Shown: piece after piece, positions 3,876 through 55,865 of the stretch
How the letters are laid out: every line of letters begins with the position of its first letter
Numbering within the stretch: the first letter of the stretch is position 1
From: a virus
IMG/VR virus record: IMGVR_UViG_3300035701_000001
Reading direction: 5' to 3' (one strand)
DNA length: 64,000 nt
Notes under the pieces: generated by a model
The model's input: only the letters and a program-made list of their open reading frames with translations
Told to the model about the DNA's origin: nothing
The model's database searches: none
Made by a program: the position numbers and the translations under genes

Positions 3876-5068
3876 ATGATTTTCCTCATGAGTTTCTTCC
3901 CAAGTTCTATGACTTCTCCCTTGTCATGTCCCTGGTCGAGCCATTGGTCCATCATCTCGGCCACTTCCTGGGGAGATCTTCCATTGAGCGGATTCTGGGA
4001 ACTGGAGGGCTCCGGATCTTCGTAGACGGATTCTTCGTATTCTTCGTCTACGTCTTCTGGAAATTCTCCTTCATCCGGGACAATGTCCTCTTCGGAGGTG
4101 TAGAAACCATCGTATTCTCCCTCGTCGTCATCTTCCGCGAGCGTATACTGGTCGTAGCCGAGATCGGGTTCTGGAGGAGTCTGGTTGACCATGGGCAATG
4201 CCCGTTGGTTCGGTGGGATGGGTAGGGAGGGATTCGAACGGACAGGCATGTTCATCAACTGGTTCACGGCGTTTCCGGCCTGCTGGTTTCCACCCGTCAG
4301 GATTCCTGATTGCATGGTGATTTTCAAGGCTTCGCCGAGGAGGTTCTGCCAGAAGGGCTGGTCCTGTCCCTGCTGTTGATTTTGCATCCAGGGAGGGGCT
4401 GCATTGACACCGCGCATGGCGTTGATGGCCGAGGCGGATGCGGCGATGACGTTGGTCGCCTGGCCGAACATCCGGGACATCATCTCATCCTTGTTCTTGT
4501 TTTCCTCGTAGAGGTGCTGGGTGAAATCATCCATTTCTCCCTTGTGTCCCGCCCCTTTGGAACCGGTGGGCAGGGTTCCGACGGCGACGGCTCCCCGGTA
4601 GCCTCCGAGGTAGGCCTTGTCCTTCTTTCGGACGATGCTCACCTCGATGTTTCCCTCGAAGGGGACGCCGATGGTCGCGCACAGCGATTTCATCAGGGTG
4701 ATGAACCCGCTTTTCCCATAGTCTTTCGTGTTCGGGTCGTAGGGGGAAGGACCGTAGTTTGCCGGGGGGGCGTTGTCGGGCATGACCTTGATGCGAATGA
4801 GCATCCGGTCGAGTTGGATGGGCCACCACTTCGGTTTTTTTCCGGAGACCAGGTCGTTGTAGAGTTCCGAGACATCTTCGATGTCCGGAGCTTCGGGAAG
4901 CCCGTCTTTGGTTCCACTGGCTTCGGCTTCATCGACTGCGTCGTGGTAGCTGGCGATGGCCAGTGCAGAGAGGACGGTTTCGTAGATGCGCTCGACGTCG
5001 ATTTCCTCGAATTCGAGCAGGGATTCCCATCCTCGGGCGGATGTGACGCTGGATTCCTTACGTGGCAT
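3872..5068 (-). CDS. Hypothetical acidic protein
   Basis: 398-aa ORF with strong GC3 codon bias, Q/N-rich middle and D/E-rich C-terminal part. Confidence 0.8.
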   Translation of the reverse strand: MPRKESSVTSARGWESLLEFEEIDVERIYETVLSALAIASYHDAVDEAEASGTKDGLPEAPDIEDVSELYNDLVSGKKPKWWPIQLDRMLIRIKVMPDNAPPANYGPSPYDPNTKDYGKSGFITLMKSLCATIGVPFEGNIEVSIVRKKDKAYLGGYRGAVAVGTLPTGSKGAGHKGEMDDFTQHLYEENKNKDEMMSRMFGQATNVIAASASAINAMRGVNAAPPWMQNQQQGQDQPFWQNLLGEALKITMQSGILTGGNQQAGNAVNQLMNMPVRSNPSLPIPPNQRALPMVNQTPPEPDLGYDQYTLAEDDDEGEYDGFYTSEEDIVPDEGEFPEDVDEEYEESVYEDPEPSSSQNPLNGRSPQEVAEMMDQWLDQGHDKGEVIELGKKLMRKII

Positions 5069-6101
5069 CGGGGAGAGTCTCCTGGGCGTGGGACTGGATG
5101 AGTTCGATGGCTTGTACCGGGGTGATCCAGGTCAGCCCGTGCCGTTCTGCGAATTGTTTGCGAGCTTCGACATCGGGGGGTTCGGCATAGCCGTTGTCGT
5201 AGAGGTTGCACCGGATGGCGGATGAGGCACATCCCATCATGCGGACTCCGTGTTCTTCGAGGTCTTCGAAGATTCCACGGAGCTTGGCACCTGAGGTGGG
5301 GTAGAGGTGTAGATCGTAGTTTCCTGCCGATCCTTCGATGGAGTAGCAGTAGGGGAACGGTTGTTCGACGACTCCCTTCTCATCGAGGGAGAAGTAGTGG
5401 GAGAAGACGTTTCCGAATCGGTTCTTGCGGATGGAGAGTCGTCGGAGTCCGGTCATGTCGTCGGGAATGTCGGCCAGCACGTCGACGAGGTGGCGAAGCT
5501 GGTTGGGTCCGAGAACATCTCCGTCTTTCGTGTACTGGGCGATGAAGATGCCTCGGGCTCGTGCGGCCTGGATCCGGTTGATGGCTGCCTTCATGACGTG
5601 GGTCGATTCCCAGGAGGTTGCAAGCTGGGAGATCGAGTCGACGACGATGAGGTCGTCTTTTTCGAGTCCGATGAGATCTTCTTCGAGTTCTTCCCACGTG
5701 TTGATCATGGAGAAGCGGGGGACGGGTGCCATGGGGTTGTGCTGTCCCACCACGCGGTTCCAGGAGGAGAAGACCATCTGGATCTGTTGTTCGGAGGACA
5801 TGTACCGGGTTGGGTTGGTCTTGAGCGCGATGGTCGTTTTTCCGGAGCCTGCATTTCCAGAGAGCAGGATGGTTCCTCCATGTTCGAGCTTGAGATGGGA
5901 CCAGGGGTGTGGAAGTGCCGGTGGATCTTCCAGGTCTGAGTATTTCCGGTTGGGGCGAGCCCTGCGGCTGTCGAGGTCGTTGTTGTTGCATCTTGGACAG
6001 GTGTGGACTTCTGGATCCAGGATGGGAAGCGTGCAGTTGTAACAGACCCGGTGGGGTTCGATGGCCAGGCTGTTTTGAATTTCGCTCTTATTTCCTTCCA
6101 T
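5058..6101 (-). CDS. radA: RadA/Sms-like ATPase lacking the Lon-like C-terminal domain
   Basis: Zn finger CYNC..CPRC, Walker A SGNAGSGKTT, Walker B LIVVDSISQL, TKDGDVLGPNQLRHLVD, and the RadA signature KNRFG. Confidence 0.85.
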   Translation of the reverse strand: MEGNKSEIQNSLAIEPHRVCYNCTLPILDPEVHTCPRCNNNDLDSRRARPNRKYSDLEDPPALPHPWSHLKLEHGGTILLSGNAGSGKTTIALKTNPTRYMSSEQQIQMVFSSWNRVVGQHNPMAPVPRFSMINTWEELEEDLIGLEKDDLIVVDSISQLATSWESTHVMKAAINRIQAARARGIFIAQYTKDGDVLGPNQLRHLVDVLADIPDDMTGLRRLSIRKNRFGNVFSHYFSLDEKGVVEQPFPYCYSIEGSAGNYDLHLYPTSGAKLRGIFEDLEEHGVRMMGCASSAIRCNLYDNGYAEPPDVEARKQFAERHGLTWITPVQAIELIQSHAQETLPDAT

Positions 6102-6953: not shown

Positions 6954-7754
6954 ATGGAACAGTACGGAGGATTCCTCGGAATCCACACCAACCCGCAGGC
7001 ACGGCTTGCACAGATCGATGGGAAGCTCGCAATCGAACTGTCCAAGCCCTCCGGTGCCCAGCGCACCCAGAAGATCGCCCGCCTCATGGGGCTGCGTGAC
7101 AAGGTGCTCGCGAAGGTCGCCGCCCGCAAGGGCGCCGAACTCGCAGCGGCCTCCATCCCCGGCCTGGCCGGTGGACTGGCCAGCAGCGGCATCCGGGGCA
7201 TGGACGTCATCGAACACGAGTTCTCCCCCGAGGTCGTTCGCCAACACAACCTCGAAGGCGCGGCCCAGGGCCTCCGCCAGATGTCCGTCGCCCCTCCGGG
7301 CTCCGGCCGCCTGGTCCCGATCCCCTTCGTCACGTCCGCGAGCACGGTCCCCGTTCACGTCGTGACGGGTGGCGGTGGTGCGCTCGGTGCCGCAGTGGGC
7401 AACCTGCAGACCGAACCGGTGAACTGGGCGGTGCTTCGCATCGTCGCGCTCACCACGCAGACCATCGCGGCGGCCACGGGCGTCGTCGGCGTCATGCAGG
7501 ACTTCAAGATCGGAGGCAGCCCCAACCTGTTCCTCTCCGAGAACTGGGTCCTGATGGACGACTACGACACCGACAAGGAGCAGTTCGCAGGGCTCCGCGC
7601 GTACCCGGTCCTCATCAGCCCGAACATCGCCTACGTCACGACCAACACGTGGGCCCCAGCGGGTCAGAACCTGTACTACGCCGTCAGCCTCGTGACCGAG
7701 GTTCTCCGCGACGACGCCTTCGGACCGGGCCTTCCCGGCGGATACGCGCGGTAG
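6954..7754 (+). CDS. Candidate major capsid protein (single-jelly-roll-like, beta-rich C-terminal domain)
   Basis: AGAGGAC RBS, extreme codon bias, flanking hairpins; about 140-aa alternating-hydrophobic beta domain; clear paralog at 55866-56645; fold is inferred, not searched. Confidence 0.55.
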   Translation: MEQYGGFLGIHTNPQARLAQIDGKLAIELSKPSGAQRTQKIARLMGLRDKVLAKVAARKGAELAAASIPGLAGGLASSGIRGMDVIEHEFSPEVVRQHNLEGAAQGLRQMSVAPPGSGRLVPIPFVTSASTVPVHVVTGGGGALGAAVGNLQTEPVNWAVLRIVALTTQTIAAATGVVGVMQDFKIGGSPNLFLSENWVLMDDYDTDKEQFAGLRAYPVLISPNIAYVTTNTWAPAGQNLYYAVSLVTEVLRDDAFGPGLPGGYAR

Positions 7755-7903: not shown

Positions 7904-9172
7904 ATGTCGGGAACCAGCGCAGTCAGCAACCAGCATCCACGGTATGGATTCACCGAGCAGAGGATGTATGCGACCCTGCCGGGCAGTGGTCTCTCGAATG
8001 TCAATCCGACCGGGGCATCGTTCGAACGTCCTCCCGGTGTCGGGACCGTGGCCGTCGTCGGAGTTTCGACCGCACTCGCAGGCGGTGCCCAGGTCAACAT
8101 GATCCTGGAAGGGTCGAACGACAACGTGAACTTCCTGGTTCTCGCCCAGCTTGCGGTGGCGGACTCCTTCACGGTGGCCGTTCCCCCTGGTCCCGCAGAG
8201 ACGAAGGTCCTGAACGCGGCGGTCGATCAACAGGTCGATGTCCAGCGGTTTGCCTACCTGCGTGTGCGTACGTTCTCCCCAGGGGGTACCTACGCCATCA
8301 ACGTGGTTGTGACGGGCATCGCGCTCGACTCCGAGAAGTTCATCTATCGGTGGAACTTCGGTCGTCTTGGTCTTACACCGACGTTCCAGAACGGTCTGGT
8401 CTACATCCGTCCGGCTGGAACGAAGTTCACGAACGTCCAGGTTTCTGCGACCATCGTGAACCTGGGGGGCATCCTCGGGTTCAACTTCATCCTGCAGGGA
8501 TGTCCGAACTACGTCGCCGGGTCCCTTGCAAATATCTGGGTGGATCTCTCCTCTGTTTTCGTGAACGGAGTCGGCTCCTACTTCCTGCAGCAGAACGGCA
8601 CCACGGAGATGGATCTCGGGAGCTACACGCACTTCCGGGTGCGTGTGATCGACGATCCGACCAATCCTCCGGGACCTCTCACGGCGTACATTGCCAGTGT
8701 CTACCTCACACTCGACTCGATGGACTGGGTCGATTCCCAGGAAGCGGCGAGTGGAGGAGGGGGTGGGGGAGGTATCGCAGACAACGCTCTGCTGAACGCG
8801 ACATTCGGGGCACCGGGTCCCGAGGTCGGCAACACCATCCCGGTCGACCTCTACCTGCTCGATGTCGCGGGAAATCCGCTTCCGGGGTCTCGCCGGGTCG
8901 AATGCCTCCTATACGATACTCCGAATGCGGGGGACCTCGATCTCGCGACGAACGCGGTGTTCTCGGCGGTCGGAGGCGGGGCTGTCGCCATCAGTGGCAT
9001 CGGCACGAACCGGGTCGTTCTCACGACGGACGCAACGGGGCATGCCATCCTCTCGGTTCTCGATGCAGCCGTCGAGTGGGTCTACCTCACGGCGGTCACG
9101 CCCAAGGGGCCCCTCACGGACCCGACCATCGTCTACAAGTCGCAGCAGTCGGCGCTGCAGTTCGTGCCGTGA
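7904..9172 (+). CDS. Putative spike/receptor-binding protein (beta-sandwich repeats plus Ig-like domain)
   Basis: Beta-rich; repeated ILEGSNDNVNF / ILQGCPN motifs; SGGGGGG linker; C-terminal VDLYLLDVAGNPLPG..TTDATGHAILSV resembles bacterial Ig-like (Big) domains. Confidence 0.6.
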   Translation: MSGTSAVSNQHPRYGFTEQRMYATLPGSGLSNVNPTGASFERPPGVGTVAVVGVSTALAGGAQVNMILEGSNDNVNFLVLAQLAVADSFTVAVPPGPAETKVLNAAVDQQVDVQRFAYLRVRTFSPGGTYAINVVVTGIALDSEKFIYRWNFGRLGLTPTFQNGLVYIRPAGTKFTNVQVSATIVNLGGILGFNFILQGCPNYVAGSLANIWVDLSSVFVNGVGSYFLQQNGTTEMDLGSYTHFRVRVIDDPTNPPGPLTAYIASVYLTLDSMDWVDSQEAASGGGGGGGIADNALLNATFGAPGPEVGNTIPVDLYLLDVAGNPLPGSRRVECLLYDTPNAGDLDLATNAVFSAVGGGAVAISGIGTNRVVLTTDATGHAILSVLDAAVEWVYLTAVTPKGPLTDPTIVYKSQQSALQFVP

Positions 9173-9207: not shown

Positions 9208-10338
9208 ATGATCCATCCGTATTTCAACCTCACGGGCGACGAGGCCAGGGGGCTGTTGTACGGGCTGCTCGAAGTGGACAAGATCCAGTTGAAGGCGAAT
9301 CCTTCGATGCCTTCGATCCGGAAGTTGATTCAGGAAGGCAGTATTCGTTACGAGCGGTCGGATCCTCAGGAACACTGGCAGTCCTACCGGGAACTCGTCG
9401 AACAGGTCCAGCAGGGCGGGGTCGGGTACGGGGATTGCGAGGACTTCGCCCCGGCAATTGCAGCCGAGGATCAGGTTCGACGTGGATTGAAATCAATTCC
9501 TGTGGCGTATACCCCTAAAGAAGGACTGTTTCACGTGGTGACAGCGGTTCCGACTTCGGGGGCGTCCTATGGAGTCACCCGGTTTCCAGACGCCCTCGGG
9601 GCTCCCAGGATGTCTGGGTATGTCCTCGAAGATCCTTCGGCAGCCGCAGGGATGGAAACCTTTGGGAGTACCGGGGTTCGTGGCAAGTCGGTGGGAGAGG
9701 CGAGGGAGCGGTTTGGTGGGATGCGGGAATTCCGGGAATTTTACGGAATAAAGGATGGTTCTTCCAAGTACACTCCTTCTCGTATCCTGGTCGAATCCGC
9801 GATGGGGCTTGCCGCCATCGAGGCGGAGGACTTTGGAAGGGCCGAGGAACTGGCCCGGAAGGTCTCCTCGATGCTCCGTGACATCCGAAAGCGCATGCCA
9901 GGCTATGACATCGATCCGGATACGCAGGAATTGCTGGAATGGTACGCCGATTTGTCGAGGGGTGAGGACACGGGGTACGAAGTCGAGTTTCCCGAGGATT
10001 CTGGTTTTGGAGCGATGGACAGGGGGGGAGAAACCCTGCGGGTGGATGCCGAATACCGGGATCGGTTGCGTCGACTGGGGGGGCAGGGGACCTGGTCTAC
10101 ACCCGTTGTCTCGATGTACTTTCGGGTTCGCAGGACAGTCCGTATCGGGCAGGGGTGTTTGATCCCCTCGTCTCTCTTGGACTTCCCTGTTCGTTCCGTG
10201 AAACCGGCTCCGAGTTCTATCGAGGAATTCGCTGGTTGTTACGGTTCTCTTTCGCTGTTTGGAGATCCGTTGCGGGACATCGAGGAACTCGATGACCTGG
10301 AACTCATGGATGAACCTGGAGTTTTTGAAGAGGATTGA
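9208..10338 (+). CDS. Transglutaminase-fold cysteine protease, candidate virion maturation protease
   Basis: GDCEDFA (Cys), FHVVTAV (His), LEDPS (Asp) in papain-like triad order; sits inside the structural cluster. Confidence 0.7.
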   Translation: MIHPYFNLTGDEARGLLYGLLEVDKIQLKANPSMPSIRKLIQEGSIRYERSDPQEHWQSYRELVEQVQQGGVGYGDCEDFAPAIAAEDQVRRGLKSIPVAYTPKEGLFHVVTAVPTSGASYGVTRFPDALGAPRMSGYVLEDPSAAAGMETFGSTGVRGKSVGEARERFGGMREFREFYGIKDGSSKYTPSRILVESAMGLAAIEAEDFGRAEELARKVSSMLRDIRKRMPGYDIDPDTQELLEWYADLSRGEDTGYEVEFPEDSGFGAMDRGGETLRVDAEYRDRLRRLGGQGTWSTPVVSMYFRVRRTVRIGQGCLIPSSLLDFPVRSVKPAPSSIEEFAGCYGSLSLFGDPLRDIEELDDLELMDEPGVFEED

Positions 10339-10412
10339 ATTAGAATCGAGGAGAGGTCCGGGTGCCGGAAATGGGTGGCCGGACTATGTTTCCCCCTGGA
10401 GGACATCTGACC

Positions 10413-12758
10413 ATGTACGGAGCATCGGACATCTACAACTCTCCCCTGTCTCGCAAGGAAATGTTCGGGGTCGAGGGTGGCATCTTCGTGGGAGGGATCA
10501 AGTCCAGGAAGGCACGGATCGAGCGTCTCTGTGACAAGATCAAGGGCTTCGTTTCGAAGACCGATCCGGATGCAGGGCCTGCGAACCTCAACGTGAAGAA
10601 GGTCACGAAGTGGGCAGGCAAGATCTCCAAGCACGTCGGAAAGGTGCTTGAAAAGGAATCGTCCTGGAAGGTTTCTCCGACGGTTCAAGCCATCCTCGAC
10701 TTCAGCAACTCGAAGGACTTCGAACAGCTTCACCAGGACCTCGGATTCTCGGTGGGTGGGGCTCGTTCTGCGGCGGAAGATGTCTCCGAGGCGGGGGAGT
10801 ACGCTCCCGAGGAAGATACCTACCAGGACATCGAGCGCAGTGCCTGGGAGGATCCCTACTCCATGGCCGAGTATGGCCCAGAAGGAGGGTATACCACTCC
10901 CGAGGGGACCTACGTGGCTCAGGGCTTCCCGACCGCCTCGCAGTACTACGAGCAGTACCCCTCCGCGTTCCAGACGGGTCCCTCCTACCCGTCTCCGCTC
11001 TACCCGCGCTGGAACCGGTGGGCGGAACGGCATCCGCACAAGGCCTATGCATTGACCCATCCGCATCGAGCGGCTCGCCAGGCGGCTCGTCATGCGGCTC
11101 GGCAGTCGGCCTATACCTATCGTCCCACCACGCACGCGATGCCGATGCGGAGGGCGGGTCCGATCTCTCGCGGAGCCGGACTCCGGGGAGCCGGACGTCG
11201 GTTCGGTGGAGTCGAGGGGGCGATCTACGCAGGTGTGGGCGATGCTTTCGATCGGGTGGACCTCTTCGGAAAGAAAGACACTCGTAGCCACGATGAAATC
11301 TGGCGCGAATTTGCGGCAAAGAACCCGAGGAAGGCACTCAAGATGTTGGAAGACATTCGTCAACGTGGGGAAGGATCTGCAGAATCGCGTCGTGAAAGAG
11401 GGCGTGTCTTTGACTTGTGGGCCTCTCGTCATCCGAAGAAGGCACACAAGTACATGATGAAGATGAAGGAAGAAGCAAGGGAAAGATCAGAGGAACGGGA
11501 AGGGTTTTCCGGTTTCTTGGATGAGTCCATCTATGCGGGGGTGGGCGATGCGATGGATCGCCAGGACCTGTTCGGTGGACTGCAGCGCACCGATCTGTTC
11601 GGTGGACTGCAGCGCACCGATCTCTTCGGTTCGGCCACGGGCATGGATCCGACCATTGGGCTCGGATCGTTCATGCCCATTCGCGAGAACCAGAGCCTCG
11701 ACCGGCTCGACACGCTCTTCGAGGACTTCGAGGAGTCGGACGAGGATGCGGCTCTCCTGGACCTCGACCTGGATGACGAGTCTGGGGAACTGGAAGAGGT
11801 GGGCTTCCGCCCTGGTCGTGGCAGGCGGGGACCCGGTCGCATGGCCCGTATGGAATCTCGTCAGCAGCACAAGCTCGGCAGGGCTCAGCTTCTCCGTGAG
11901 AAGGCAGCCGCCATGGCGGCCACCCATCCGCGCCGGGCGGCTCGGCTGAATTGGCTCGCGGATCTGGCCGAGAAGCGCGCAGGGCGGATCGAACAGCACC
12001 AGCAGCAGATCGAATCTCGCAGAGGTACGGCGGCCTACGGGGCCCTGACCTTCTGGCAGCAGCACGAAGCGGCTCGTACCGACCAGATCGAGGCGGCTCT
12101 GCAGGCAGCGGATCCCGCTTCCCTCGATTCCATCAGCGCGCTCGTCGAGCACTACTACAACAACACGAATGATCCGGACGACCGGGTCCAGCGCAAGATG
12201 GACAAGCTGGCCGAGAAGATCATGGGCCGGCTCGGGGCCACCTGGCAGCCGATGGATTACGAGACCCAGACGGCGTTCAACACGGGAGCTTCTGCCTTCG
12301 AGGCGGCGACCAGCGATGTCGAGCACCTGGCTTCCTACGGTTTCCTCGCCCGTGACGTCGCCCGTCGTCTGACCCGTCTGCAGCGTGAGTACGCCCAGGT
12401 TCGCCGGGCGGGTGGCAAGAACGCGGAAGAGAAGGCCGAGAAGATCCTCGGGGAGATCGCGGTTCTCTCGAAGCGCATCGAGGCCTTGAAGGCCATGCCG
12501 AACGTCGGGGTGATGGGGCAGGAGTCCAGTGCTCCCTATGCTCCCATGCGGACGCCCGAGGAATTGGGCGATGGATCCCAGGCCGAGCCCAGGGCTTCGT
12601 ATGCGCCGACGGACGAGGAGATCTCCAGGGCCATTCAGCCGAGGAAGGTACTTCCCTTCGGTGTGGGCGAGGATGTTCCGGACGATCCCGAGGTGGATCA
12701 GTTGGAAGAAGACGAGGATTGGGATGATCTCAACGTGTCCAGCCTCGGTGGTGACTAG
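10413..12758 (+). CDS. Large modular virion protein / candidate core polyprotein
   Basis: GGAGGAC RBS; MYG start; alternating basic and acidic modules; internal repeats; strong codon bias. Confidence 0.8.
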   Translation: MYGASDIYNSPLSRKEMFGVEGGIFVGGIKSRKARIERLCDKIKGFVSKTDPDAGPANLNVKKVTKWAGKISKHVGKVLEKESSWKVSPTVQAILDFSNSKDFEQLHQDLGFSVGGARSAAEDVSEAGEYAPEEDTYQDIERSAWEDPYSMAEYGPEGGYTTPEGTYVAQGFPTASQYYEQYPSAFQTGPSYPSPLYPRWNRWAERHPHKAYALTHPHRAARQAARHAARQSAYTYRPTTHAMPMRRAGPISRGAGLRGAGRRFGGVEGAIYAGVGDAFDRVDLFGKKDTRSHDEIWREFAAKNPRKALKMLEDIRQRGEGSAESRRERGRVFDLWASRHPKKAHKYMMKMKEEARERSEEREGFSGFLDESIYAGVGDAMDRQDLFGGLQRTDLFGGLQRTDLFGSATGMDPTIGLGSFMPIRENQSLDRLDTLFEDFEESDEDAALLDLDLDDESGELEEVGFRPGRGRRGPGRMARMESRQQHKLGRAQLLREKAAAMAATHPRRAARLNWLADLAEKRAGRIEQHQQQIESRRGTAAYGALTFWQQHEAARTDQIEAALQAADPASLDSISALVEHYYNNTNDPDDRVQRKMDKLAEKIMGRLGATWQPMDYETQTAFNTGASAFEAATSDVEHLASYGFLARDVARRLTRLQREYAQVRRAGGKNAEEKAEKILGEIAVLSKRIEALKAMPNVGVMGQESSAPYAPMRTPEELGDGSQAEPRASYAPTDEEISRAIQPRKVLPFGVGEDVPDDPEVDQLEEDEDWDDLNVSSLGGD
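11565..11630 (+). repeat. 27-bp in-frame tandem repeat (DLFGGLQRT x2 + DLFG)
   Basis: GA(C/T)CTGTTCGGTGGACTGCAGCGCACC at 11565-11591 and 11592-11618, partial third copy. Confidence 0.95.
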
Positions 12759-12761
12759 ACC

Positions 12762-12998
12762 ATGAACGGAGCGATCCGCTGCGTGGATGCCCACGGCAAC
12801 CCGATGGACTTCTGTCCGGTCGGGGTGCCAGGGGCTGCAGGGGATCGCTCCGGGGTCCGTCCCGGTTTCACCACGTTTGGTGGCTATTCTCCTGACCCTC
12901 TCCGGGATCGTGGGTACGAGTACAACAAGGCCGGGTATCTGCAGGGTAGCTACGATTCCTGGCGTGCACAGTTCCAGCGGTGGAGAAACCCACGATGA
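12762..12998 (+). CDS. Small hypothetical protein of the structural cluster
   Basis: 78 aa; fills the gap between coupled neighbours; ATGA overlap with the next gene. Confidence 0.65.
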   Translation: MNGAIRCVDAHGNPMDFCPVGVPGAAGDRSGVRPGFTTFGGYSPDPLRDRGYEYNKAGYLQGSYDSWRAQFQRWRNPR

Positions 12999-14473
12999 GC
13001 CCGAAGCTTGACGATGTAGATGAGTTCGACATCTCGAAGGAAACCCTGTACGTAGGGGATCCAGACGAGAGCGAAGACGAGGACGAAGAGGAAGACAAGG
13101 ACAAAGCCTTGCTGGAAGCTTTGTTCAGTGATTCCTCTGACCCTTCGGCTGACGATTCCTTGGACGAGGAGATCGACTCTGCCCTGTCGGACGAGTCCCC
13201 TACACAGAGACTGTGGGAGTTTCCGGACGAATCCCTCAACGTTCAATCATTTGAACACCAGGAGACCCGCAAGCCCAAGGTGAGTCGCCGTGCATTTGCT
13301 TCCGATGCTCGCCGTTCGATGGACGTTTCCCATGAGGAATCCTATGGGCTCGGCTACGAGTCGGGCTACGTGCAGGCCCTGAAGGATATGGGCGTCGAAG
13401 GGGATACCCTATGGGATGCCTACGGCGGACTCGTGAAGAAGGGCATCCAGGGAGCAGGTGGTATCTTCTCCTCGGCAGCCCGTGGGTTCCTCGGGACCAC
13501 TCCCAAGGAAGCTGCGAAGGAACTTCGTGGAGAAGTCGGCAAGGAACTCCAGGGACAGATCCGCAAGCAACTCGGTGTGGCTGGCAAGCCGACCCAGATG
13601 GCCGAAGAATTGGGCAAGCAGTTGCGCCAGCAGGCCCTTGGGGTTGTCGAGGCGGATGAGTCGACACTTCCCCCCGTGTACGTGGAGGACAAGGAGGGGT
13701 TCGAGGAGGACCTGGCACTCGATGAAGGGTCCGAACCCATCGAACTGGACGACAGCCTTCTGGTCCAGGAAGAGTTCGGGGCGACGGCGAAGCACGGGTT
13801 CTTTGCGAGTCAGCCCCGGCATCGCATCCGGGAAGCTGCGAAGAAAGCGATGATCGGTGGGCAGGCATCTCTCAAGACGGCCACTCCGTCGGGTCCTGCT
13901 CCTTTCGTCGAGGATCCCGAGGCGGCTCCGAAGCTCTACTCGACCGGTCGGATCGTGGATGCGGTCTACGGGGAGATGAGCCTGGTCCCGTGTCCGTCCT
14001 GCAGCCGGATCCCCGAGAAGTTTGCTGGGATGGGCAAAGCCGAGAACTGTCTGGTCTGCACGCAGTACGGGGCCATCCTGATTCCGAAGTCCGACATCAG
14101 CCACTACGTGGCTTCGACGAGCTACGGTATCTTGCCTTTGCTCGTGGCAGCGGTTTCCTCAGCCACCCCGAAGATCATGGAACAGGCTTCGAAGGGAAAG
14201 CTTTTCCCGAAGGCCATGGCCAAGCTGAAGACCTGGCTGTCCGGCAAGAAGGCCAAGACCGAGGCACTTCCCTCTGATTCCAGTATCGATCTCGATCTGG
14301 ACAAGGAGAGCGAGGAAGAGTCCGAGACGGATCCCTATGACATCTCTGGAGTCGAAGAGATGTTCGGTGGAGTCGAGGAAGAACCAGAAGAGGACGTCGA
14401 GGAACAGGATCTTCCGGAGGAGTATGGGGTCGTCCGTGCTCTCGTTCCGAGTCGGTACCGGTTCAACCGGTAG
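12995..14473 (+). CDS. Acidic modular virion protein with CxxC..CxxC and a pX-like peptide
   Basis: D/E-rich ends; eight [YF]G sites; CPSC..CLVC; SYGILPLLVAAVSS. Confidence 0.8.
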   Translation: MSPKLDDVDEFDISKETLYVGDPDESEDEDEEEDKDKALLEALFSDSSDPSADDSLDEEIDSALSDESPTQRLWEFPDESLNVQSFEHQETRKPKVSRRAFASDARRSMDVSHEESYGLGYESGYVQALKDMGVEGDTLWDAYGGLVKKGIQGAGGIFSSAARGFLGTTPKEAAKELRGEVGKELQGQIRKQLGVAGKPTQMAEELGKQLRQQALGVVEADESTLPPVYVEDKEGFEEDLALDEGSEPIELDDSLLVQEEFGATAKHGFFASQPRHRIREAAKKAMIGGQASLKTATPSGPAPFVEDPEAAPKLYSTGRIVDAVYGEMSLVPCPSCSRIPEKFAGMGKAENCLVCTQYGAILIPKSDISHYVASTSYGILPLLVAAVSSATPKIMEQASKGKLFPKAMAKLKTWLSGKKAKTEALPSDSSIDLDLDKESEEESETDPYDISGVEEMFGGVEEEPEEDVEEQDLPEEYGVVRALVPSRYRFNR

Positions 14474-14483
14474 GAGGGGCTCC

Positions 14484-14852
14484 ATGCGTTACGGTGGATG
14501 TACCTACGGGATGCGGGCTCCACGGCTCGGGGGAGGGGGGGGCGCTCACCCCATGATGACTCCACGTTCCTTTGGTTCTCCCCGTTCCTTTGGTTCTCCT
14601 CGTGGAATCGGAGCTTTTCCTCGTCTGGGGGGTGGGATTCATCCCCATCGGTTTCCTCCTTTTCACAGGGGGACTGGACGTGCCTGGTTTCATCCACGCC
14701 GTCGGTTTGTTCCGACGTACTACTCCCCAGGCTCTTACTGGGCCTATCCGTGGTATGTCCATCCCGTGGATGAAATTCCCTATGAAGTGACGGAACTGGA
14801 TCTCGATGAGTTGTCGGATCAGGCGGTCTTGGAGCTTGGATTTTCCGGATAG
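14484..14852 (+). CDS. Small Arg/Gly/Pro-rich protein with acidic tail
   Basis: AGGAGG RBS; MRYGGCTYG; PRSFGS tandem repeat (18 bp x2 at 14565-14600). Confidence 0.7.
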   Translation: MRYGGCTYGMRAPRLGGGGGAHPMMTPRSFGSPRSFGSPRGIGAFPRLGGGIHPHRFPPFHRGTGRAWFHPRRRFVPTYYSPGSYWAYPWYVHPVDEIPYEVTELDLDELSDQAVLELGFSG

Positions 14853-14862
14853 GAGCAGGAAC

Positions 14863-15645
14863 ATGAATCGGTGGTACGGTGATCAATACGGTGCGGTGCG
14901 GATGCCTTTCCGTCCCTCGGTTCGTTCGGGTGTTCTCTCCGGGAAGACTCCTCTGTCGACCGCCCGGTACCCGAACTTGATGTCCCGGATCCGGCAGGCA
15001 GCCTCTGCTCGCCAGGGATCGTCTCTCGTTCCTCCGCTTGCTCCTGGATCGTCTGGATGGGAAGGCCTGTCCCCGCAGTGGGCGGCCAGTCCCTATGCGG
15101 CTCCCGAGTATGTTCCCGAGTCTCCGGAGTACCAGGAGCCGGTGGAGATTCCCGAGGAGTTCTTCGACGATCTCTCCGAACAGGCACTCTATGACATTGG
15201 ACTCGGGGGGAGCCAGGTGCCGCTGGAGGAGATGGAGGAATTCGGATTCTTCAGCCCGGAACGTCTGAAGCGAGACAAGGTTGAAACCAATGGGGTACCT
15301 CACAAGGGAGCAGAGCTTGCAGCCGCTGGCTACGGCTCCATGCAGACGATGGATCCCTCCCATGGTCGTCGCCTTCCCATCCTCGCTTCTCATGCGCGGG
15401 CCATGGGTTCTTCCCAGAGGGGCCCCGATGAGCGTGCGAGGGAACGGCGGGGCATCATCGATCGGTTTGGATTGGAAGTTCCCCGTCCGGAAATCCTTCC
15501 TTCCTCCTACCGGACCCCGGTGGTCGATACGCGTCCTGACATGTCGTTCGAATCGAGTTTGAAGATGGGAGCGGGGATCGCAGTCGGTTTCCTGGCGGTC
15601 GGTGGGATCGCTGCTCTGCTGGGACATGCTTTTTCGGGACGGTGA
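14863..15645 (+). CDS. Putative virion membrane protein (C-terminal TM helix)
   Basis: AGGA RBS; MNRWYGDQYG; C-terminal GAGIAVGFLAVGGIAALLG. Confidence 0.8.
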   Translation: MNRWYGDQYGAVRMPFRPSVRSGVLSGKTPLSTARYPNLMSRIRQAASARQGSSLVPPLAPGSSGWEGLSPQWAASPYAAPEYVPESPEYQEPVEIPEEFFDDLSEQALYDIGLGGSQVPLEEMEEFGFFSPERLKRDKVETNGVPHKGAELAAAGYGSMQTMDPSHGRRLPILASHARAMGSSQRGPDERARERRGIIDRFGLEVPRPEILPSSYRTPVVDTRPDMSFESSLKMGAGIAVGFLAVGGIAALLGHAFSGR

Positions 15646-15693
15646 ACGTTCCGCGTGATACGAATTCCGAGTAACCTTGCACAAGAGGACACC

Positions 15694-16722
15694 ATGGCCA
15701 CACAACCTCCGTACAACGCCTTCGACGACATCTTCGACGACGAGAACCTGAATCTCGATCTCGAATTGGAGGACATCGACACGGACTCCCCGTACTACGG
15801 TGCCGGAGACGACGATGATCTTCCCGCACTCGAAGCCGAGGTGGATGCCGAGACGTTCGGACAGGAATCGGAGATCGAGTCTCCGGAAGACATCGAGTGG
15901 GCTTCCACCCCGTGGAGTCTGCCCGAGGCCGAAGAGACCTCCGAGGAGCAGTCCCAGTTCGCGGAGCCGATGGCCCAGGGCAACGTCGAGGATCTCTTCG
16001 AACTCGGCAACGTGCTGCTGCCGACCGCCTACCAGGACGGAACCCTCGAAACCCTCGTGAAGTGGGCGACGAGTTCGTTCGGTGGGGACGATGCGCGCGG
16101 TATCGTGACTGCCATGCAGGACATGAAGAACCCCTCGCTCGCGGACTGGAAGTCCATGAACGAGTCCCAGCGCGAGACGTTCGTGATGGACGCCATCAAG
16201 CGCGCGGCGATTCCCGGAATCCCGTTCCGTTCCTGGGACAAGCTCCAGGATGCCTGGAACCAGGGGAACGGACCCATCAACACCGCCTGGAAGCTCGTCA
16301 CGACCACACCGTCCGCGCTGTGGAGCCTCGTGTCTCGTGACTTCCCGACGCTGACCGCCGCCTGGATCGACGAGGTCATGCCGATTCCCGGTGTGGAACT
16401 GACCCGGCACGAGGTCCTGAACCAGAAGGCCATGTTCTACTGGTTCCTGGAGATGCTCGGCTACGACGTCGTCAAGGGAATCGCAGCCCAGATGACCGTG
16501 TACTTCGATCAGTACGGCTATCCCACCCCGGTGGGCGAGCAGGCCTTCGAGGTCCCGTCGACCGAGGTCGAGGTCGAGGAAGGGGGCGAAGCGTTCTTCC
16601 CCGGTCCCGCGATGGAGATCGCACCGCCCAGGGCCGAGTCGGTCCTTCCGCGTCCGCAGACCATCCTCGCGTTCGGATACGGGCTCATGATCGCCGGGTC
16701 GCTCACGGGCCTGATCAAGTAG
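15694..16722 (+). CDS. Putative abundant virion membrane protein (C-terminal TM helix)
   Basis: AGAGGACACC RBS; extreme codon bias; acidic N-terminus; C-terminal ILAFGYGLMIAGSLTGLI. Confidence 0.8.
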   Translation: MATQPPYNAFDDIFDDENLNLDLELEDIDTDSPYYGAGDDDDLPALEAEVDAETFGQESEIESPEDIEWASTPWSLPEAEETSEEQSQFAEPMAQGNVEDLFELGNVLLPTAYQDGTLETLVKWATSSFGGDDARGIVTAMQDMKNPSLADWKSMNESQRETFVMDAIKRAAIPGIPFRSWDKLQDAWNQGNGPINTAWKLVTTTPSALWSLVSRDFPTLTAAWIDEVMPIPGVELTRHEVLNQKAMFYWFLEMLGYDVVKGIAAQMTVYFDQYGYPTPVGEQAFEVPSTEVEVEEGGEAFFPGPAMEIAPPRAESVLPRPQTILAFGYGLMIAGSLTGLIK

Positions 16723-24051: not shown

Positions 24052-24939
24052 ATGCGGTTGCGATTTGCTGTGCTGGAGACGGGTTCCATCCCGTGCTGGG
24101 CGTCTGCCTGTGTCTGGAAGGGTGTCGAGTCCGTGAGTCTTTCTCACGTCGATATCCTGTCCGGGCCCAAGGTCCAGTCTGCCCTGTCCACGCTTTCTGG
24201 AGCCCTCGACGTCTTGCTCGTCGATGTCCGCAATGGGCTTGGATTTTCGACTGTGGCAAGTTGGACGCATCTGCTCCGTAGGACGCAACCCCGTCATCTC
24301 CTCGTCTTTGCAGCAACAGAAGGCGATGGGGCGGACCAGGGTCGTTTTCTCGTGAACTGGCTGGATGGACGGGAGCATCTGCACCTCAAGAAGACCGAGG
24401 TATCCCTCCTGGAATCCTTTGGCGCTCCGTTGATCGGACGGATGGTGGTTTCCCTGTTCTCTCAGGTCATTGGAACGGGTTCTTTGGAGTTTCCGCAGCC
24501 CGTGACGGGGTTTTCGAGGGGTTCTCCTTACATCCCATGGAGTACTTCTAGGTACCGTGGGTTGGGCAGTCCGATCTCCAGGGACAGCCTGGCGGTCATC
24601 GACTGGAACCTTGCTTCCTTCCTCGGAGGTCCCCAGTTCGTTCTTCCGGGATACCCCTTTGCACTTCCCGCTCAAGCACCCCGTATCCGTGATGTCGAGT
24701 ACGAGGGATTCGGAATGCTCTGCCATTCGGTGGATGCTCCGTCTTCCTTCGTCGTTCTCTCCATCTCTGACTTGTTGCATCTCCTCGGCTATCCGGGATC
24801 GCTGTTGGACGAGCATCCCGTCGATCTGCAGTGGGGCTTGCTCAAAACCCTTCTCCCTGCTTCCTTCTCCGACCATTGGTTGGGGTGGGCACAGGAGAAC
24901 CTCGGGTCTGTCGAAGACCCTTCAACCCAGACCGAATAA
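24052..24939 (+). CDS. Hypothetical protein, possibly a degenerate C5 DNA methyltransferase
   Basis: GGGGAGG RBS; LLRRTQPRHLLV and LSISDLLHLLGYPG resemble MTase motifs VI and IX; no catalytic PC. Confidence 0.55.
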   Translation: MRLRFAVLETGSIPCWASACVWKGVESVSLSHVDILSGPKVQSALSTLSGALDVLLVDVRNGLGFSTVASWTHLLRRTQPRHLLVFAATEGDGADQGRFLVNWLDGREHLHLKKTEVSLLESFGAPLIGRMVVSLFSQVIGTGSLEFPQPVTGFSRGSPYIPWSTSRYRGLGSPISRDSLAVIDWNLASFLGGPQFVLPGYPFALPAQAPRIRDVEYEGFGMLCHSVDAPSSFVVLSISDLLHLLGYPGSLLDEHPVDLQWGLLKTLLPASFSDHWLGWAQENLGSVEDPSTQTE

Positions 24940-24965
24940 ACGCCGACAGGCAAAAGGAATCTGCT

Positions 24966-25967
24966 ATGCCGAAAGCCGAGAAGAACATCGAGACGACCGA
25001 GGTCAAGGAGCCCGTCGAGGTCAAGGAACCCGTCGAGGTCCAGGACAACGACATGTTCGGGATCGACGTCGAGGTTTCCGACCCCGCGTTCGGAAGCATC
25101 TACCCCATCGTCCAGTGGGTCAACGGGGATCGCACGAAGAAGAAGTCCGAGGACATCGACTACACGGGTGGCTTCTTCGTCTCCGCCGAGCAGGGCATCG
25201 AGATCCCCGGCGCGCACCCCTACAAGCTCATGACCCAGGAAGGCCAGGAGGTCGATGGGTTCGCGATCCGCGATCTCGTCCTCCACCCCCTGCGCTACCG
25301 CCGGTCCTGGATCTGCCTGCCCAAGGAAGGTGGGCTGCAGATGCGCTTCCCGTGGGATGCCTACGAGGATGCCAAGGAACACGACTGCAAGAACTCGCCG
25401 CGTGGACGCGGTCAGCTTCTCGCGGTCATCGAAGGCATGAACCAGCCCGTCTGCCTGACGTTCTCGGGCATGGTCTCCGCCCACGTCTTCTCCCGTGGCA
25501 AGGACCGGGGCGTGCTCTCCAACTACGGCCAGGTCATCGTCGGCAGGGCGCGGGCACTGGCCCGCCGCAAGGGACGCGACATCGAGTACCCGCTCTGCGC
25601 GTTCAAGCTCTCCATGGGCCCCGAGCGCAACGCGGAAGGTCCGGTCTTCACGAAGGTCGGCCAGGGCACCGCGACCAACTACGTCGTCTACCCGGTGTGG
25701 CTCGACAAGCCCGCTGGCATCCCCGGCGAGGACCACATCGGTCGCCTGTTCGCGGGTCGCGAACTCTTCGCGAAGCTCCAGGACTGGCACCGCGAGGCGG
25801 ACGAGTGGGTCGCGCAGTGGTCGACCAAGGCGCTGATCGAGCAGCTCAAGACCTTCCTCACCAACAAGTCCAGCCTGGCCGAGAGCCTCAAGGGCATGGG
25901 CACGAGCGAAGGCGAGACGGCGGCCGAGGGCGAGGGCCTTCCGGGCGAGCGCGAGGTCCCGTTCTAG
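24966..25967 (+). CDS. Putative single-stranded DNA-binding / recombination protein
   Basis: AAGGA RBS; extreme codon bias; acidic C-tail ending EREVPF like bacterial SSB (DIPF); next to nrdJ. Confidence 0.55.
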   Translation: MPKAEKNIETTEVKEPVEVKEPVEVQDNDMFGIDVEVSDPAFGSIYPIVQWVNGDRTKKKSEDIDYTGGFFVSAEQGIEIPGAHPYKLMTQEGQEVDGFAIRDLVLHPLRYRRSWICLPKEGGLQMRFPWDAYEDAKEHDCKNSPRGRGQLLAVIEGMNQPVCLTFSGMVSAHVFSRGKDRGVLSNYGQVIVGRARALARRKGRDIEYPLCAFKLSMGPERNAEGPVFTKVGQGTATNYVVYPVWLDKPAGIPGEDHIGRLFAGRELFAKLQDWHREADEWVAQWSTKALIEQLKTFLTNKSSLAESLKGMGTSEGETAAEGEGLPGEREVPF

Positions 25968-25998
25968 TCCGGTTCCGACCTCATGTCGGTTCCAAGTG

Positions 25999-26033
25999 CG
26001 GGCGGGGGAGCCAGGTGTTTCCCCCGCCCGTTT
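25999..26033 (+). terminator. Rho-independent terminator-like hairpin
   Basis: CGGGCGGGGGAG-loop-TTCCCCCGCCCG (12 bp) followed by TTT, 30 nt after the stop. Confidence 0.7.
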
Positions 26034-26068
26034 CGTCTGTCGAATCGGGTTTCTGGCAGGGGGATGAG

Positions 26069-29000: not shown

Positions 29001-29578
29001 TGCACACGGGGGAGTACGAGGACGAGAATCTGGGGGAGATCTTCATCACCACGAACAAGGAGGGTGCAACGGTCGGCGCGTTGATGAACGCGTTCTGTGT
29101 GGCCATCTCCATCGGGTTGCAGCACGGGGTTCCGTTGGAACGGTTCGTCAACCTCTTCTGTTTCTGGAAGTTCGATCCCCAGGGTCCTGTGAAGGGAGAT
29201 GATCGCATCAAGATGTGCACGAGTCTGATCGACTACGTGTTCCGGCATCTGGCAGTTCATTACCTGGGCCGGGACGATCTGGCCCACGTAAGTTCCGAGG
29301 ATGCACTCGTGGCTTCTGTCGAAGAGGAACCCGAGTGGGAAGAGGAGGAGATTCAGGAAGTCCAGGAGGCTCCTCTTTCCGTGAATGTAGGGACGGCTCC
29401 GACGCAGACCGTTTCCAAGAACAAGGCAGGGGCTTCTCCTCCGAAAAATGAAACGGATGTGACCCAGGAGATGGGATACACGGGAGAGATGTGTCCTTTG
29501 TGCGGTCACTCGACGCTCGTCCGGGAAGGCCCCTGTGTGAAGTGCCGTACCTGCGGGGCCAATCCTGGATGTTCCTGA
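26069..29578 (+). CDS. nrdJ: Class II (B12-dependent) ribonucleotide reductase with C-terminal TSCPD and Zn-ribbon
   Basis: SPQWFN, PQVHACYI, GSGTGTNFS, SGGTTRRAAKM, NPCSEY, ACNLASLN, APTGTIS, SGGISKTVN; C-terminal CPLCG..CRTCG..CS. Confidence 0.95.
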   Translation: MSKKNGEFHVERVFTEGLSDPYQGIDFEQRDSIIRQPNGDVVFKMRGIWVPTHWSPDATRMLIQKYLRKAGVPSDTVRVEESGVPVWLQRSVPAAGAELGFEKSLKDVFHRMAGCWTYWIWKSGLFDSESSARVFYEEIVRMLVFQVAAPNSPQWFNTGLHWAYGLMGPAQGHYHVPIPGGPAVASTNAYEHPQVHACYIQACQDELVGPGGIMDLWVREARLFKYGSGTGTNFSRLRGQGEKLSGGGASSGLMSWLAIGDRAAAAVQSGGTTRRAAKMVLVDVDHPDILDFIHWKVEEEHKVASLVVGSHVLDVSLSAVVSACWPEGSETPSLVLSENKALRRAIRKAREAGVPEARIIRELDLVRMGNQEYNDSVYNTSWEGVAYQTVGGQQANNSVRVTDKFLRAVKEDQDWSLLRRTDGSVSRTLPAREVWAAIVDAAWCCGDPALQYHDTTNAWHTCRNDGEIVASNPCSEYLFFEETACNLASLNLVYFIDWTNPSRPFLMARYLQAILLWTVVLDVSVTMSQLPSQAIAEGTDRYRTLGLGYANLGAFLMRNGIPYDSERGRCVAAALTSLLTGEAYRTSAMLAGILDPFPRYPENRTSMEKVIHQHVDVCDRWMAGLESYAPLERGIWSEAHFQWENAKKLGRLFGYRNAQVTCLAPTGTISFVMDCDTTGCEPDYSLVKFKSLAGGGYLGLVNHSVRLAFETLGYSAEVISRMITALLGTRKIQGDWLSSLVGKGFTPEMIDRVERDLPTSYHVSFAVTPEIVGKKECTEYLGIPQNEIGTEDVTLLGTGLLSRLGFSSTEIEAFNTEVCGCKSMEFVSELSPEHLPVFDCASRSGLGTRTLSVMGHLLMMEVLQPFLSGGISKTVNLPRDATRETVAEVYAWAWEHGLKSIAIYRDGSKLSQPLSSGLVERMLDAGSEDEMSKEKTVEEVVRVAEKISVRYLAKRRRLPYRRRGYTQKVTIQNQKLFLHTGEYEDENLGEIFITTNKEGATVGALMNAFCVAISIGLQHGVPLERFVNLFCFWKFDPQGPVKGDDRIKMCTSLIDYVFRHLAVHYLGRDDLAHVSSEDALVASVEEEPEWEEEEIQEVQEAPLSVNVGTAPTQTVSKNKAGASPPKNETDVTQEMGYTGEMCPLCGHSTLVREGPCVKCRTCGANPGCS

Positions 29579-48836: not shown

Positions 48837-48881
48837 GGAGTCCTCTCTCTTCCTGCTTATCCCAGAAGGGGATTGACTGGG

Positions 48882-48910
48882 TTGACACAAGTTGTGTCAT
48901 GTGGTATGTT
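48882..48910 (+). promoter_or_regulatory. Sigma70-type promoter with operator repeat 4
   Basis: TTGACA-17-TATGTT with TG extension; TTGACAC-AAGTT-GTGTCAT. Confidence 0.8.
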
Positions 48911-48929
48911 GGCTGCCCTGGGAGGACAC

Positions 48930-55778: not shown

Positions 55779-55865
55779 GGGTCTCCTTTATCTTGTTTCT
55801 CTGTACCGCGCGTGGACTTGGCTTTGTCGATTCGGGTGATTATCCTGGGTGTCCAGGGAGGTCGC

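Follow-up and report, generated by a model that had tools for sequence, protein, structure and literature searches.

A LapG-like cysteine protease encoded beside a jelly-roll capsid-like protein: a candidate morphogenetic protease of bacterial viruses

The protease gene and its catalytic domain

The window analysed here is a 64,000-nucleotide stretch of the virus record IMGVR_UViG_3300035701_000001, and our subject is a gene at 9208..10338 that encodes a 376-residue protein, comprising a transglutaminase-like cysteine protease domain and a long tail (coordinates are on the plus strand unless stated otherwise). Genes for a capsid-like jelly-roll protein and an immunoglobulin-like (Ig-like) protein lie upstream, and genes for acidic proteins, which share a short [FY]G motif with the tail, lie downstream. 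Sequence and structural modelling indicate that the product very probably belongs to the BTLCP branch of the transglutaminase-like superfamily and is active as a cysteine peptidase. We estimate at about 50% the probability that it is a morphogenetic (maturation) protease with a scaffold-like tail, used by bacterial viruses with single-jelly-roll capsid-like proteins.

The open reading frame was supported by its codon-usage score, with codon usage resembling that of the secure genes of the window, by a purine-rich, plausible ribosome-binding site (AGGGAC) preceding the ATG, and by 38 metagenomic homologs with E values from 1e-23 to 1e-79. Only the first 150-160 residues were common to these homologs, at 40-69% identity, and the tails varied in both length and sequence. 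The catalytic domain was placed at residues 1-153 (9208..9666) from the model, from the fold matches, which over residues 8-161 were all transglutaminase-like, and from the family profile. Cys-His-Asp motifs had been located within the first ~150 residues in the initial annotation of this gene, and we found GDCEDFA at residues 75-81, FHVV at 108-111 and EDPS at 141-144. The first of these contains D76-C77-E78-D79 (9433..9444), the catalytic cysteine with flanking, putatively Ca2+-binding acidic residues, as indicated by conservation and by alignment with LapG. The other two contribute His109 (9532..9534) and Asp142 (9631..9633), assigned by invariance and from the model. The first [FY]G of the protein, F152-G153 (9661..9666), lies at the boundary of domain and tail, near the point at which stand-alone relatives stop.

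None of the three sequence sets compared showed a substitution at Cys77, His109 or Asp142: a set of 33 close homologs, one of 17 sequences reaching down to 32% identity, and one of 67 family members, most of them stand-alone. The acidic residues D76, E78 and D79 were invariant or at least 90% conserved in the same three sets. Among the close homologs D76, E78, D79, S144, G148 and M149 were invariant along with the triad, and all of them stayed so, or almost so, in the other two sets. An AlphaFold2 model computed with an alignment gave predicted local distance difference test (pLDDT) values of 85-98 over residues 10-150. In the model, Cys77 stands at the N-terminus of helix 77-92, His109 lies within strand 107-115, and Asp142 closes strand 138-141. 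The order C-H-D, with the cysteine opening a helix and the histidine and aspartate on two later strands, is that of the transglutaminase-like superfamily, and this placement on secondary-structure elements is as in enzymes of the papain and transglutaminase families, in agreement with the triad that had been proposed. The domain also contains a distinct N-terminal helical region which carries a conserved block, Y48/E55/W57. The N-terminus of the protein, MIHPYFNLTGDEARG, showed no hydrophobic signal peptide, and inspection of the 376-residue sequence revealed neither a membrane anchor nor a wall-binding domain.

Structural and sequence relatives of the domain

Comparison of the model with the PDB using Foldseek returned the putative cysteine protease 3isr, a transglutaminase (TGase), LapG, CPR-C4, TG3, TgpA and PeiP, with E values of 0.02-0.5. 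VIA-align gave Z scores of 7.0 for PeiW/PeiP, 6.1 for TG3, 6.0 for TglA, 5.6 for factor XIII and 5.1 for LapG. The scores are modest, yet the list is uniform: 49 of the 50 PDB structural matches listed covered residues 8-163 and belonged to transglutaminase-like or closely related Cys-His-Asp folds (Z 5.0-7.0), and no unrelated fold was found over the catalytic domain with Foldseek, VIA-align or a wide search. Small viral clusters of PF01841 were also structural neighbours of the domain.

Sequence searches were less direct. The window protein had no Pfam match even at E 10, and neither Pfam nor PHROGs returned anything for the protein or its neighbours. Among the 67 family members, 24 matched PF01841 (best E 1.1e-6; one member also had a precomputed weak match) and six matched Peptidase_C93 (PF06035) weakly (best E 0.033). 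By Pfam, membership of the window protein in the transglutaminase-like superfamily therefore follows by transitivity only. With the family profile, the best relative of solved structure was LapG, with chains at E 0.0079 and 0.054, and the alignment ran through W..t..e...G.GDCED.A. The structural alignment of LapG with the window domain showed 17-19% identity. A profile built from the full-length alignment matched only low-complexity acidic stretches when searched against PDB sequences.

LapG and its relative DvhG require a C-H-D triad and an adjacent calcium site for activity, and DvhG is inactivated by D316A/E318A, which replaces the residues flanking Cys317, or by C317A (PMC13090378). At the level of sequence, the invariant D-C-E-D of the viral family is the same motif as the calcium/catalytic motif of LapG/DvhG, and the 9208-10338 enzyme is probably calcium-dependent. 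Since it lacks a signal peptide and occurs in a different context, the protein is not a periplasmic LapG orthologue; by sequence and model, the viral family is best described as a virus-specific branch of BTLCP, of the LapG type. The description of the protein as a transglutaminase-fold Cys-His-Asp protease was thus upheld, with LapG/BTLCP proteases rather than cross-linking transglutaminases as the nearest sequence relatives.

The fold and triad are nevertheless also those of true transglutaminases (TG3 and factor XIII, above), and the triad cannot tell hydrolysis from transamidation. The enzyme might then form isopeptide cross-links between capsid or internal proteins and so stabilise a very large particle, as large capsids need reinforcement. 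We regard this as decidedly improbable, because both the nearest sequence relatives and the D-C-E-D motif belong to BTLCP proteases, and because the conserved motifs in the putative substrates described below contain no conserved Gln or Lys.

The top structural matches, PeiW/PeiP, aligned over 105-115 residues with a root-mean-square deviation of 3.3-3.9, and could indicate a virion- or lysis-associated peptidase that cuts peptide cross-links of murein on entry or exit, like the pseudomurein endoisopeptidases of phages. Some gene neighbourhoods are in keeping with such a function: the gene after the protease gene in L019 and L017, two of the related contigs, encodes a membrane-anchored protein with PG_binding-like repeats, and an M23 peptidase or a muramidase is encoded two or three genes further on in L021 and L022. 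At the sequence level, however, the relatives are LapG and transglutaminase-core proteins and not Pei. The enzyme lacks a signal peptide, membrane anchor and wall-binding domain, dedicated wall hydrolases are already present (an SLT/lysozyme-like protein in the window), the constant neighbour of the gene is a jelly-roll gene and not a hydrolase gene, and the motif-rich tail would be left unexplained. A wall peptidase is therefore improbable.

Family size and the C-terminal tail

We searched 1.84 billion representative proteins, clustered at 50% identity, with the family profile. This yielded 2,895 matches at E ≤ 0.001 and 1,956 at E ≤ 1e-10, and no sampled member of the family carried a name. 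We found no relative of the protease or of the jelly-roll protein in IMG/VR, and tblastn against 50,697 deposited phage genomes gave no match for the whole protein, a stand-alone relative or the jelly-roll protein. In literature searches, we came across no account of jelly-roll viruses with a transglutaminase-like protease.

Among the best 164 family members, about half were stand-alone enzymes of 111-190 residues that stopped 0-6 (in a few cases up to 12) residues after an invariant Gly-Met, which corresponds to residues 148-149 of the 376-residue protein. Some others contained tandem duplications of the protease domain, and the remainder carried tails, with total lengths of 300-1,100 residues. 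The tandem duplications included P0041, P0042, P0044 and others (245-310 residues) as well as L018 and L020; in L018 the first copy appears to be without the catalytic cysteine motif. We also considered whether the stand-alone enzymes end in Gly in the manner of a processed C-terminus, and dropped the idea, as their last residues varied (R 25, E 12, G 11, others).

In the tail-bearing members, Gly-Met was followed by xx[FY]GG[LV][RP]GK, which placed an [FY]G 2-5 residues past the end of the domain (28 of the 33 aligned tails). The tail-bearing clade was found on contigs of 92-385 kb, and the contig of the window itself measures 204.5 kb. Because about half of these best-scoring members are without a tail, we regard the tail as a lineage-specific addition of the large-genome clade. 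The [FY]G-studded tail that had initially been described as a feature of the protease is therefore characteristic of this clade and not of the family. In the window protein the tail spans residues 154-376 (9667..10335), is acidic and mostly disordered (pLDDT mostly <50), with helices at about residues 190-250 (pLDDT 50-75), and contains six further [FY]G. The tails of P0027, P0028, P0030 and P0037 contain a predicted membrane-spanning stretch, LPSW.LPAA.G.A.GA..VG..VAL, which suggests that the protease may be membrane-anchored in those viruses.

The [FY]G motif in the tail and in neighbouring proteins

We located [FY]G at or beyond the domain boundary at residues 152 (TFG), 169 (RFG), 179 (FYG), 209 (DFG), 267 (GFG), 345 (CYG) and 351 (LFG). 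Six of these had been listed initially and all six were present; DFG at 209 is additional. The whole protein contains 10 [FY]G, compared with 3.4 expected after shuffling (z 3.8). The 33 homologous tails together contained 272 compared with 86.5 expected, and 32 of the 33 exceeded twice their own expectation, so that the density of the motif is not an effect of composition. Seven positions in the tail carried [FY]G in 16-28 of the 33 aligned sequences.

Within the window, enrichment was confined to five consecutive genes at 9208-16722 (z 3.8, 2.7, 4.1, 2.4 and 3.4; 40 observed, 14.7 expected). The longer form [DE]x[FY]G occurred 21 times in this module, where 2.9 were expected, and 11 times in the rest of the window, where 8.5 were expected. 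The corresponding gene block in L001 and L002 was also enriched in [DE]x[FY]G, unlike the ATPase and Ig-like proteins. The consensus of the motif was [DE]-[ESLM]-[FY]-G-[AG], and individual [FY]G sites were invariant within regions that were otherwise poorly conserved among orthologs.

The first of the downstream genes, at 10413..12758 and preceded by the ribosome-binding site GGAGGAC, encodes an acidic protein of 781 residues that starts with MYGASDIY, contains DLFG repeats and has an excess of the motif ([DE]x[FY]G 5, with 0.84 expected). Its N-terminus MYG.SD.Y.SP was invariant in five genomes. The next, at 12980..14473, encodes an acidic protein of 497 residues with a Cys-rich core, in which EEYG and FGA sites were invariant in three orthologs and the longer motif was again in excess (5, with 0.53 expected). 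Both are candidate substrates. They had already been named as such in the initial annotation, and the sharing of a conserved [YF]G short linear motif was evident in both products. Two further motif-rich proteins with hydrophobic C-terminal ends and uncertain start codons are encoded at 14806-15645 and 15655-16722 (together 14806..16722; [FY]G z 2.4 and 3.4), with three and two [DE]x[FY]G, respectively.

Papain-type enzymes typically prefer sites with an aromatic residue in P2 and Gly in P1. From these sequence patterns we infer that the motif has the features expected of propeptide boundaries, which does not in itself prove cleavage; that [FY]G is the site of cutting is possible, with the odds somewhat against it. 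The runs of [FY]G also bear a loose resemblance to beta-clamp-binding motifs and to the cohesive motif of FG-nucleoporins, and the context offered no support for either.

The jelly-roll capsid-like protein

The gene at 6954..7754 encodes a protein of 266 residues which we consider the most likely substrate, on the basis of conservation, the model, structural matches and motif counts. It belongs to a set of ~265-residue proteins that are by far the best conserved products of the gene block, with 41-80% identity in 59 of 62 homologs. In the model of the 266-residue protein, a helical hairpin at the N-terminus is joined through a disordered linker to a sandwich of eight strands. The sandwich matched a capsid protein of HHIV-2 (6h82_b, Z 7.2 over 124 residues), the coat protein of SPMV (Z 7.2) and STIV A223 (Z 6.5), and Foldseek returned polyhedrin and coat proteins of the picornavirus type. 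HHIV-2 is a membrane-containing archaeal virus and SPMV is satellite panicum mosaic virus. According to the model and its weakly scoring matches, the 6954-7754 product has one jelly roll, of the type seen in viral capsids.

The protein begins with a MEQYG leader, has AAAS at residues 64-67 and ends in DDAFG-PGLPGGYAR. Of 60 homologs, 51 had an [FY]G among their first 16 residues; shuffled N-termini gave 14.2 on average and 25 at most. This N-terminal [FY]G ended acidic leaders of 3-10 residues and was usually followed by Gly or Ala; one homolog started exactly after the motif. At the other end, DD.[FY]G.G[LI]P..Y was kept in 59 of the 60. In lineages at ~30% identity the leaders read EDSEFGAS (L006) and DDAEFGAS (L021), and a C-terminal DDN[FY]G...PG.YAR was retained.

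A second kind of candidate site was found between the helical hairpin and the jelly roll. The sites cleaved by LapG and DvhG read [T/A/P]AAG and directly follow a targeting helix, with the cut falling between the alanines (PMC13090378). The linkers of the capsid-like proteins contained TAAG (L021), SAAG (L006-3 and L007), AAAG twice (L006-1) or AAAS (the clade of the window). Paralogs without the helical hairpin started close to this [TSA]AA[GS] point. The probability of a chance occurrence was 2-14% for each linker site, the independent lineages scored numbered only about four, and the motif was defined after seeing the data; we therefore treat the LapG-type linker site as a lead. On sequence grounds it is an equally good candidate cut site alongside [FY]G, and if it is genuine, the enzyme would remove a scaffold-like helical domain from the capsid protein.

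The same sites suggest a variant in which the enzyme is a morphogenetic protease that removes the helical hairpin by cutting at [TSA]-A-A-[GS], and [FY]G is never cut, serving instead as a docking or assembly motif by which the tail and the acidic proteins are brought to the inside of the capsid or to a membrane. In its favour, apart from the position of the sites after a helical domain and the starts of the shorter paralogs, the linker KGA.LAAASIPG of the window clade is nearly invariant though predicted to be disordered, and KGAELAAAGYG occurs in the 14806 product. Ala-rich motifs are, however, common at this GC content, the reservations about lineage number and post hoc choice apply here too, and the presence of [FY]G at the ends of acidic leaders of variable length would remain unexplained. 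We consider this variant unlikely.

Several further observations concern the jelly-roll protein. The (near-)invariant, predicted disordered linker of the window clade continues as KGA.LAAASIPG.AGGLASSGIRGMD, and KGA[AE]LAAA followed by Gly/Ser-rich sequence is common to the jelly-roll protein, the 14806 product (KGAELAAAGYGS) and the tail of the protease homolog P0038. Three tandem jelly-roll paralogs precede the protease gene in L006 (244-3464) and in L025/L028, one of them with an insertion of ~200 residues; this arrangement resembles capsids built of several single-jelly-roll proteins. A possible second capsid paralog in the window (55866-56645, region 55170-56645) was not confirmed: it lacks the C-terminal DDx[FY]G, and its pairwise BLASTP match covered 74 residues at an E value of only 0.041.

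Gene neighbourhood and replicon

The genes upstream of the protease form part of a conserved module. A RecA/KaiC-like P-loop ATPase is encoded on the minus strand at 5058..6101 (divergently transcribed; weak Pfam matches to KaiC and AAA_24, RadA E 1.7e-5), and did not match FtsK/HerA, the type of packaging ATPase that a PRD1- or P23-77-like virus would be expected to have. An Ig-like, beta-rich protein of 422 residues is encoded at 7904..9172, between the capsid-like and protease genes; it was assigned by synteny and by Big-like structural neighbours in the ESM Atlas, and contains no [DE]x[FY]G. For the two proteins upstream of the protease, the ESM Atlas returned only unnamed viral clusters and Ig-like neighbours. 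In related contigs the order of the block was the ATPase (divergent), a small membrane protein, the ~265-residue protein, one or two Ig-like proteins of ~400-540 residues, the protease and the acidic proteins. In a related contig of 128 kb, the ATPase homolog has 717 residues and a weak LAGLIDADG match, which suggests an intein.

The Ig-like gene separates the jelly-roll and protease genes in the window and in L001-L005, and in L006 (three paralogs), L007, L013, L021 and L025/L028 the protease gene directly follows one or more jelly-roll genes. This adjacency persisted to ~30% identity and included integrase-bearing elements of ~18 kb. The ATPase, membrane protein, jelly-roll protein and protease were all shared with L021, a contig of 18.7 kb that additionally encodes an integrase, SSB, Dam and an M23 peptidase; homologs of the ATPase were found in the small elements L021 (E 2e-36) and L022. 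That the linkage to the capsid-like gene is kept across deep divergence marks the protease gene as part of the core of a virus-like module not described before. When species genomes were searched with a degenerate DNA pattern for DCEDLA.A..AE, the matches fell mostly in metagenome-assembled genomes (MAGs) of Myxococcota, one of them within a contig of 1.95 Mb.

LapG-type enzymes cut host adhesins (PMC13090378), and the viral enzyme might be an effector that travels in the particle and enters the host, where it would cut a host protein such as a surface adhesin or a defence protein, with the tail serving for packaging only. The tails and the neighbouring proteins do look internal or ejected, and some homologous tails have a membrane helix. 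The strict adjacency to the jelly-roll gene, even in minimal elements of 18 kb, and the occurrence of the same short motif in the virus's own structural proteins make this explanation far-fetched.

Elsewhere, the window encodes DnaE, a class II ribonucleotide reductase of 1,673 residues, ThyX, a proofreading exonuclease, nucleotide kinases and an SLT/lysozyme-like protein, and we found no terminase, portal, HK97 capsid or tail protein within its 64 kb. The ribonucleotide reductase (24557-29578) greatly exceeds the usual length; ~540 residues precede its first Pfam domain, a TSCPD domain lies at its end, and it may contain inteins or extra domains. A protein of 833 residues (48468-50969) has a HicA-toxin-like segment, the match being weak (E 2.6e-5) and below the Pfam cut-off, and a protein of 354 residues (1745-2809) matches DUF726 (alpha/beta hydrolase-like). 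In L021 (9569-9700) and L022 (12565-12708), the wall hydrolase gene is followed by a gene for a very basic protein of 43-47 residues ending in GRQGRLF, which may be a DNA-condensing or terminal protein.

A possible role in virion morphogenesis

In the proposed role as a morphogenetic protease, the enzyme would trim short acidic leaders or extensions from the capsid-like protein and from the acidic, partly membrane-anchored proteins encoded downstream, processing them during or after assembly of the particle. Cleavage would take place after [DE]-x-[FY]-G, with the aromatic residue in P2 and Gly in P1, and/or at the LapG-type [TSA]-A-A-[GS] between helical hairpin and jelly roll. In the large-genome clade, the variable, acidic and partly helical tail would probably carry the enzyme into the assembling particle as a scaffold-like element or packaging handle, and would probably be released by self-cleavage at F152-G153, exactly at the domain boundary. 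The support for cleavage at this junction is purely positional. The calcium motif suggests that activity may be gated by calcium. None of the alternative explanations accounts for the adjacency to the capsid gene together with the shared motif as well as a protease of this kind does.

A number of points weigh against this interpretation. The assignment of substrates was made from motifs and synteny, and the assignment of the jelly-roll protein as a capsid protein rests on weak scores (Z ~7). The C-terminal site of the capsid-like protein has His or Val in place of the aromatic residue in some lineages (L028), and the nine residues that follow it are as conserved as the rest, so that a structural or docking element fits this site better than a discarded peptide. 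The 10413 product starts with MYG, where a cut would remove three residues only. The window covers 64 kb of the 204.5-kb contig, and a conventional capsid module with its own protease may lie elsewhere on it; clusters that bear a tailed-phage label also include small proteins of the transglutaminase-like type. Finally, PeiW/PeiP, which gave the closest structural matches, cleave isopeptide bonds of the cell wall, and a peptidoglycan hydrolase or PG-binding protein is encoded one to three genes downstream in the small relatives.

A more specific version of the morphogenetic role can be put forward only speculatively, and we think it more probably wrong than right. Here, a calcium-gated, LapG-like enzyme would be the dedicated maturation protease of an undescribed, sphaerolipovirus-like lineage of bacterial viruses with single jelly rolls, whose members would extend from ~18-kb temperate elements, of which several lie in Myxococcota MAGs, up to replicons measuring 200-385 kb. 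The enzyme would remove acidic leaders that end in [FY]G, and in the giant members would cut off its own tail. If this were true, it would be the first maturation protease of prokaryotic jelly-roll viruses, and an independent invention of the task that adenain performs in eukaryotic ones.

To our knowledge, prokaryotic viruses with jelly-roll capsids (PRD1-, PM2-, P23-77- and SH1-like) do not use a maturation protease, and tailed phages use serine maturation proteases of other folds. A conserved cysteine protease within a capsid-gene cluster would thus add a processing step to the assembly of such viruses. The proteins described here form a new, large viral family in a known enzyme superfamily, with a proposed role that would be new both for the fold and for prokaryotic jelly-roll viruses. 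As the motif in the neighbouring proteins is short and recognisable, the cut sites can be tested directly. The D-C-E-D calcium motif suggests a simple trigger for maturation, namely the calcium found outside the cytoplasm. Furthermore, a family of ~2,900 clusters that is invisible to Pfam, PHROGs, IMG/VR and deposited phage genomes could serve as a marker gene, and could reveal a group of viruses, including replicons of >200 kb, which current pipelines miss.

Comparison with known proteases

By sequence, the closest characterised enzymes are LapG and DvhG (BTLCP, MEROPS C93, PF06035), which are Ca2+-dependent and periplasmic. The viral protein shares with them the C-H-D order and the G-D-C-E-D motif; it may plausibly also favour small residues where it cuts, with candidate [TSA]AA[GS] sites located after a helix in the neighbouring protein. 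In contrast to LapG/DvhG, the viral protein has no signal peptide, neither a LapD-type partner nor a type 1 secretion adhesin is encoded nearby, and the gene occurs in the context of a viral structural module. The N-terminal helical region with Y48/E55/W57 is distinct, and the tails have no counterpart in LapG. PeiW and PeiP, the pseudomurein endoisopeptidases of methanogen phages (PF01841 superfamily, C71), resemble the domain in fold (Z 7.0). They differ in that the window protein starts directly with the catalytic domain and lacks wall-binding repeats, in that its gene stands beside capsid-like genes and not in a lysis cassette, and in that the replicon encodes a bacterial-type DnaE and relatives occur in Myxococcota MAGs.

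Fusions of a protease to a scaffold are known from the protease/scaffold precursor of herpesviruses, gpO of phage P2 and gpC/Nu3 of lambda. By analogy, the viral protein would likewise have a protease at its N-terminus and, past a cut site between the two parts, an elongated C-terminal tail destined for the procapsid. The presence of the same site in many proteins that would be packaged and processed together recalls the heads of T4 and phiKZ. Those fusion proteins, however, are serine proteases of unrelated folds from viruses of the HK97 type, whereas the present enzyme is a cysteine protease of predicted transglutaminase fold encoded beside jelly-roll proteins.

Cysteine proteases of clan CE, namely adenain, I7 of poxviruses and pS273R of African swine fever virus, serve eukaryotic viruses with jelly rolls, and Prp is a cysteine protease that trims short N-terminal leaders from the capsid and scaffold proteins of the staphylococcal phage 80alpha. 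The proposed role would parallel that of the clan CE enzymes, in that a cysteine protease would mature virion proteins with Gly or a small residue in P1, and would parallel that of Prp in the removal of short leaders ending in an aromatic plus a small residue. The initial annotation had proposed a virion-maturation role like that of adenain and I7. The link to morphogenesis was strengthened by the adjacency of the jelly-roll gene, and the likeness is one of role only: adenain has its residues in the order His-Asp/Glu-Cys, compared with Cys77-His109-Asp142 in the viral protein, and the folds differ, so that no homology is implied.

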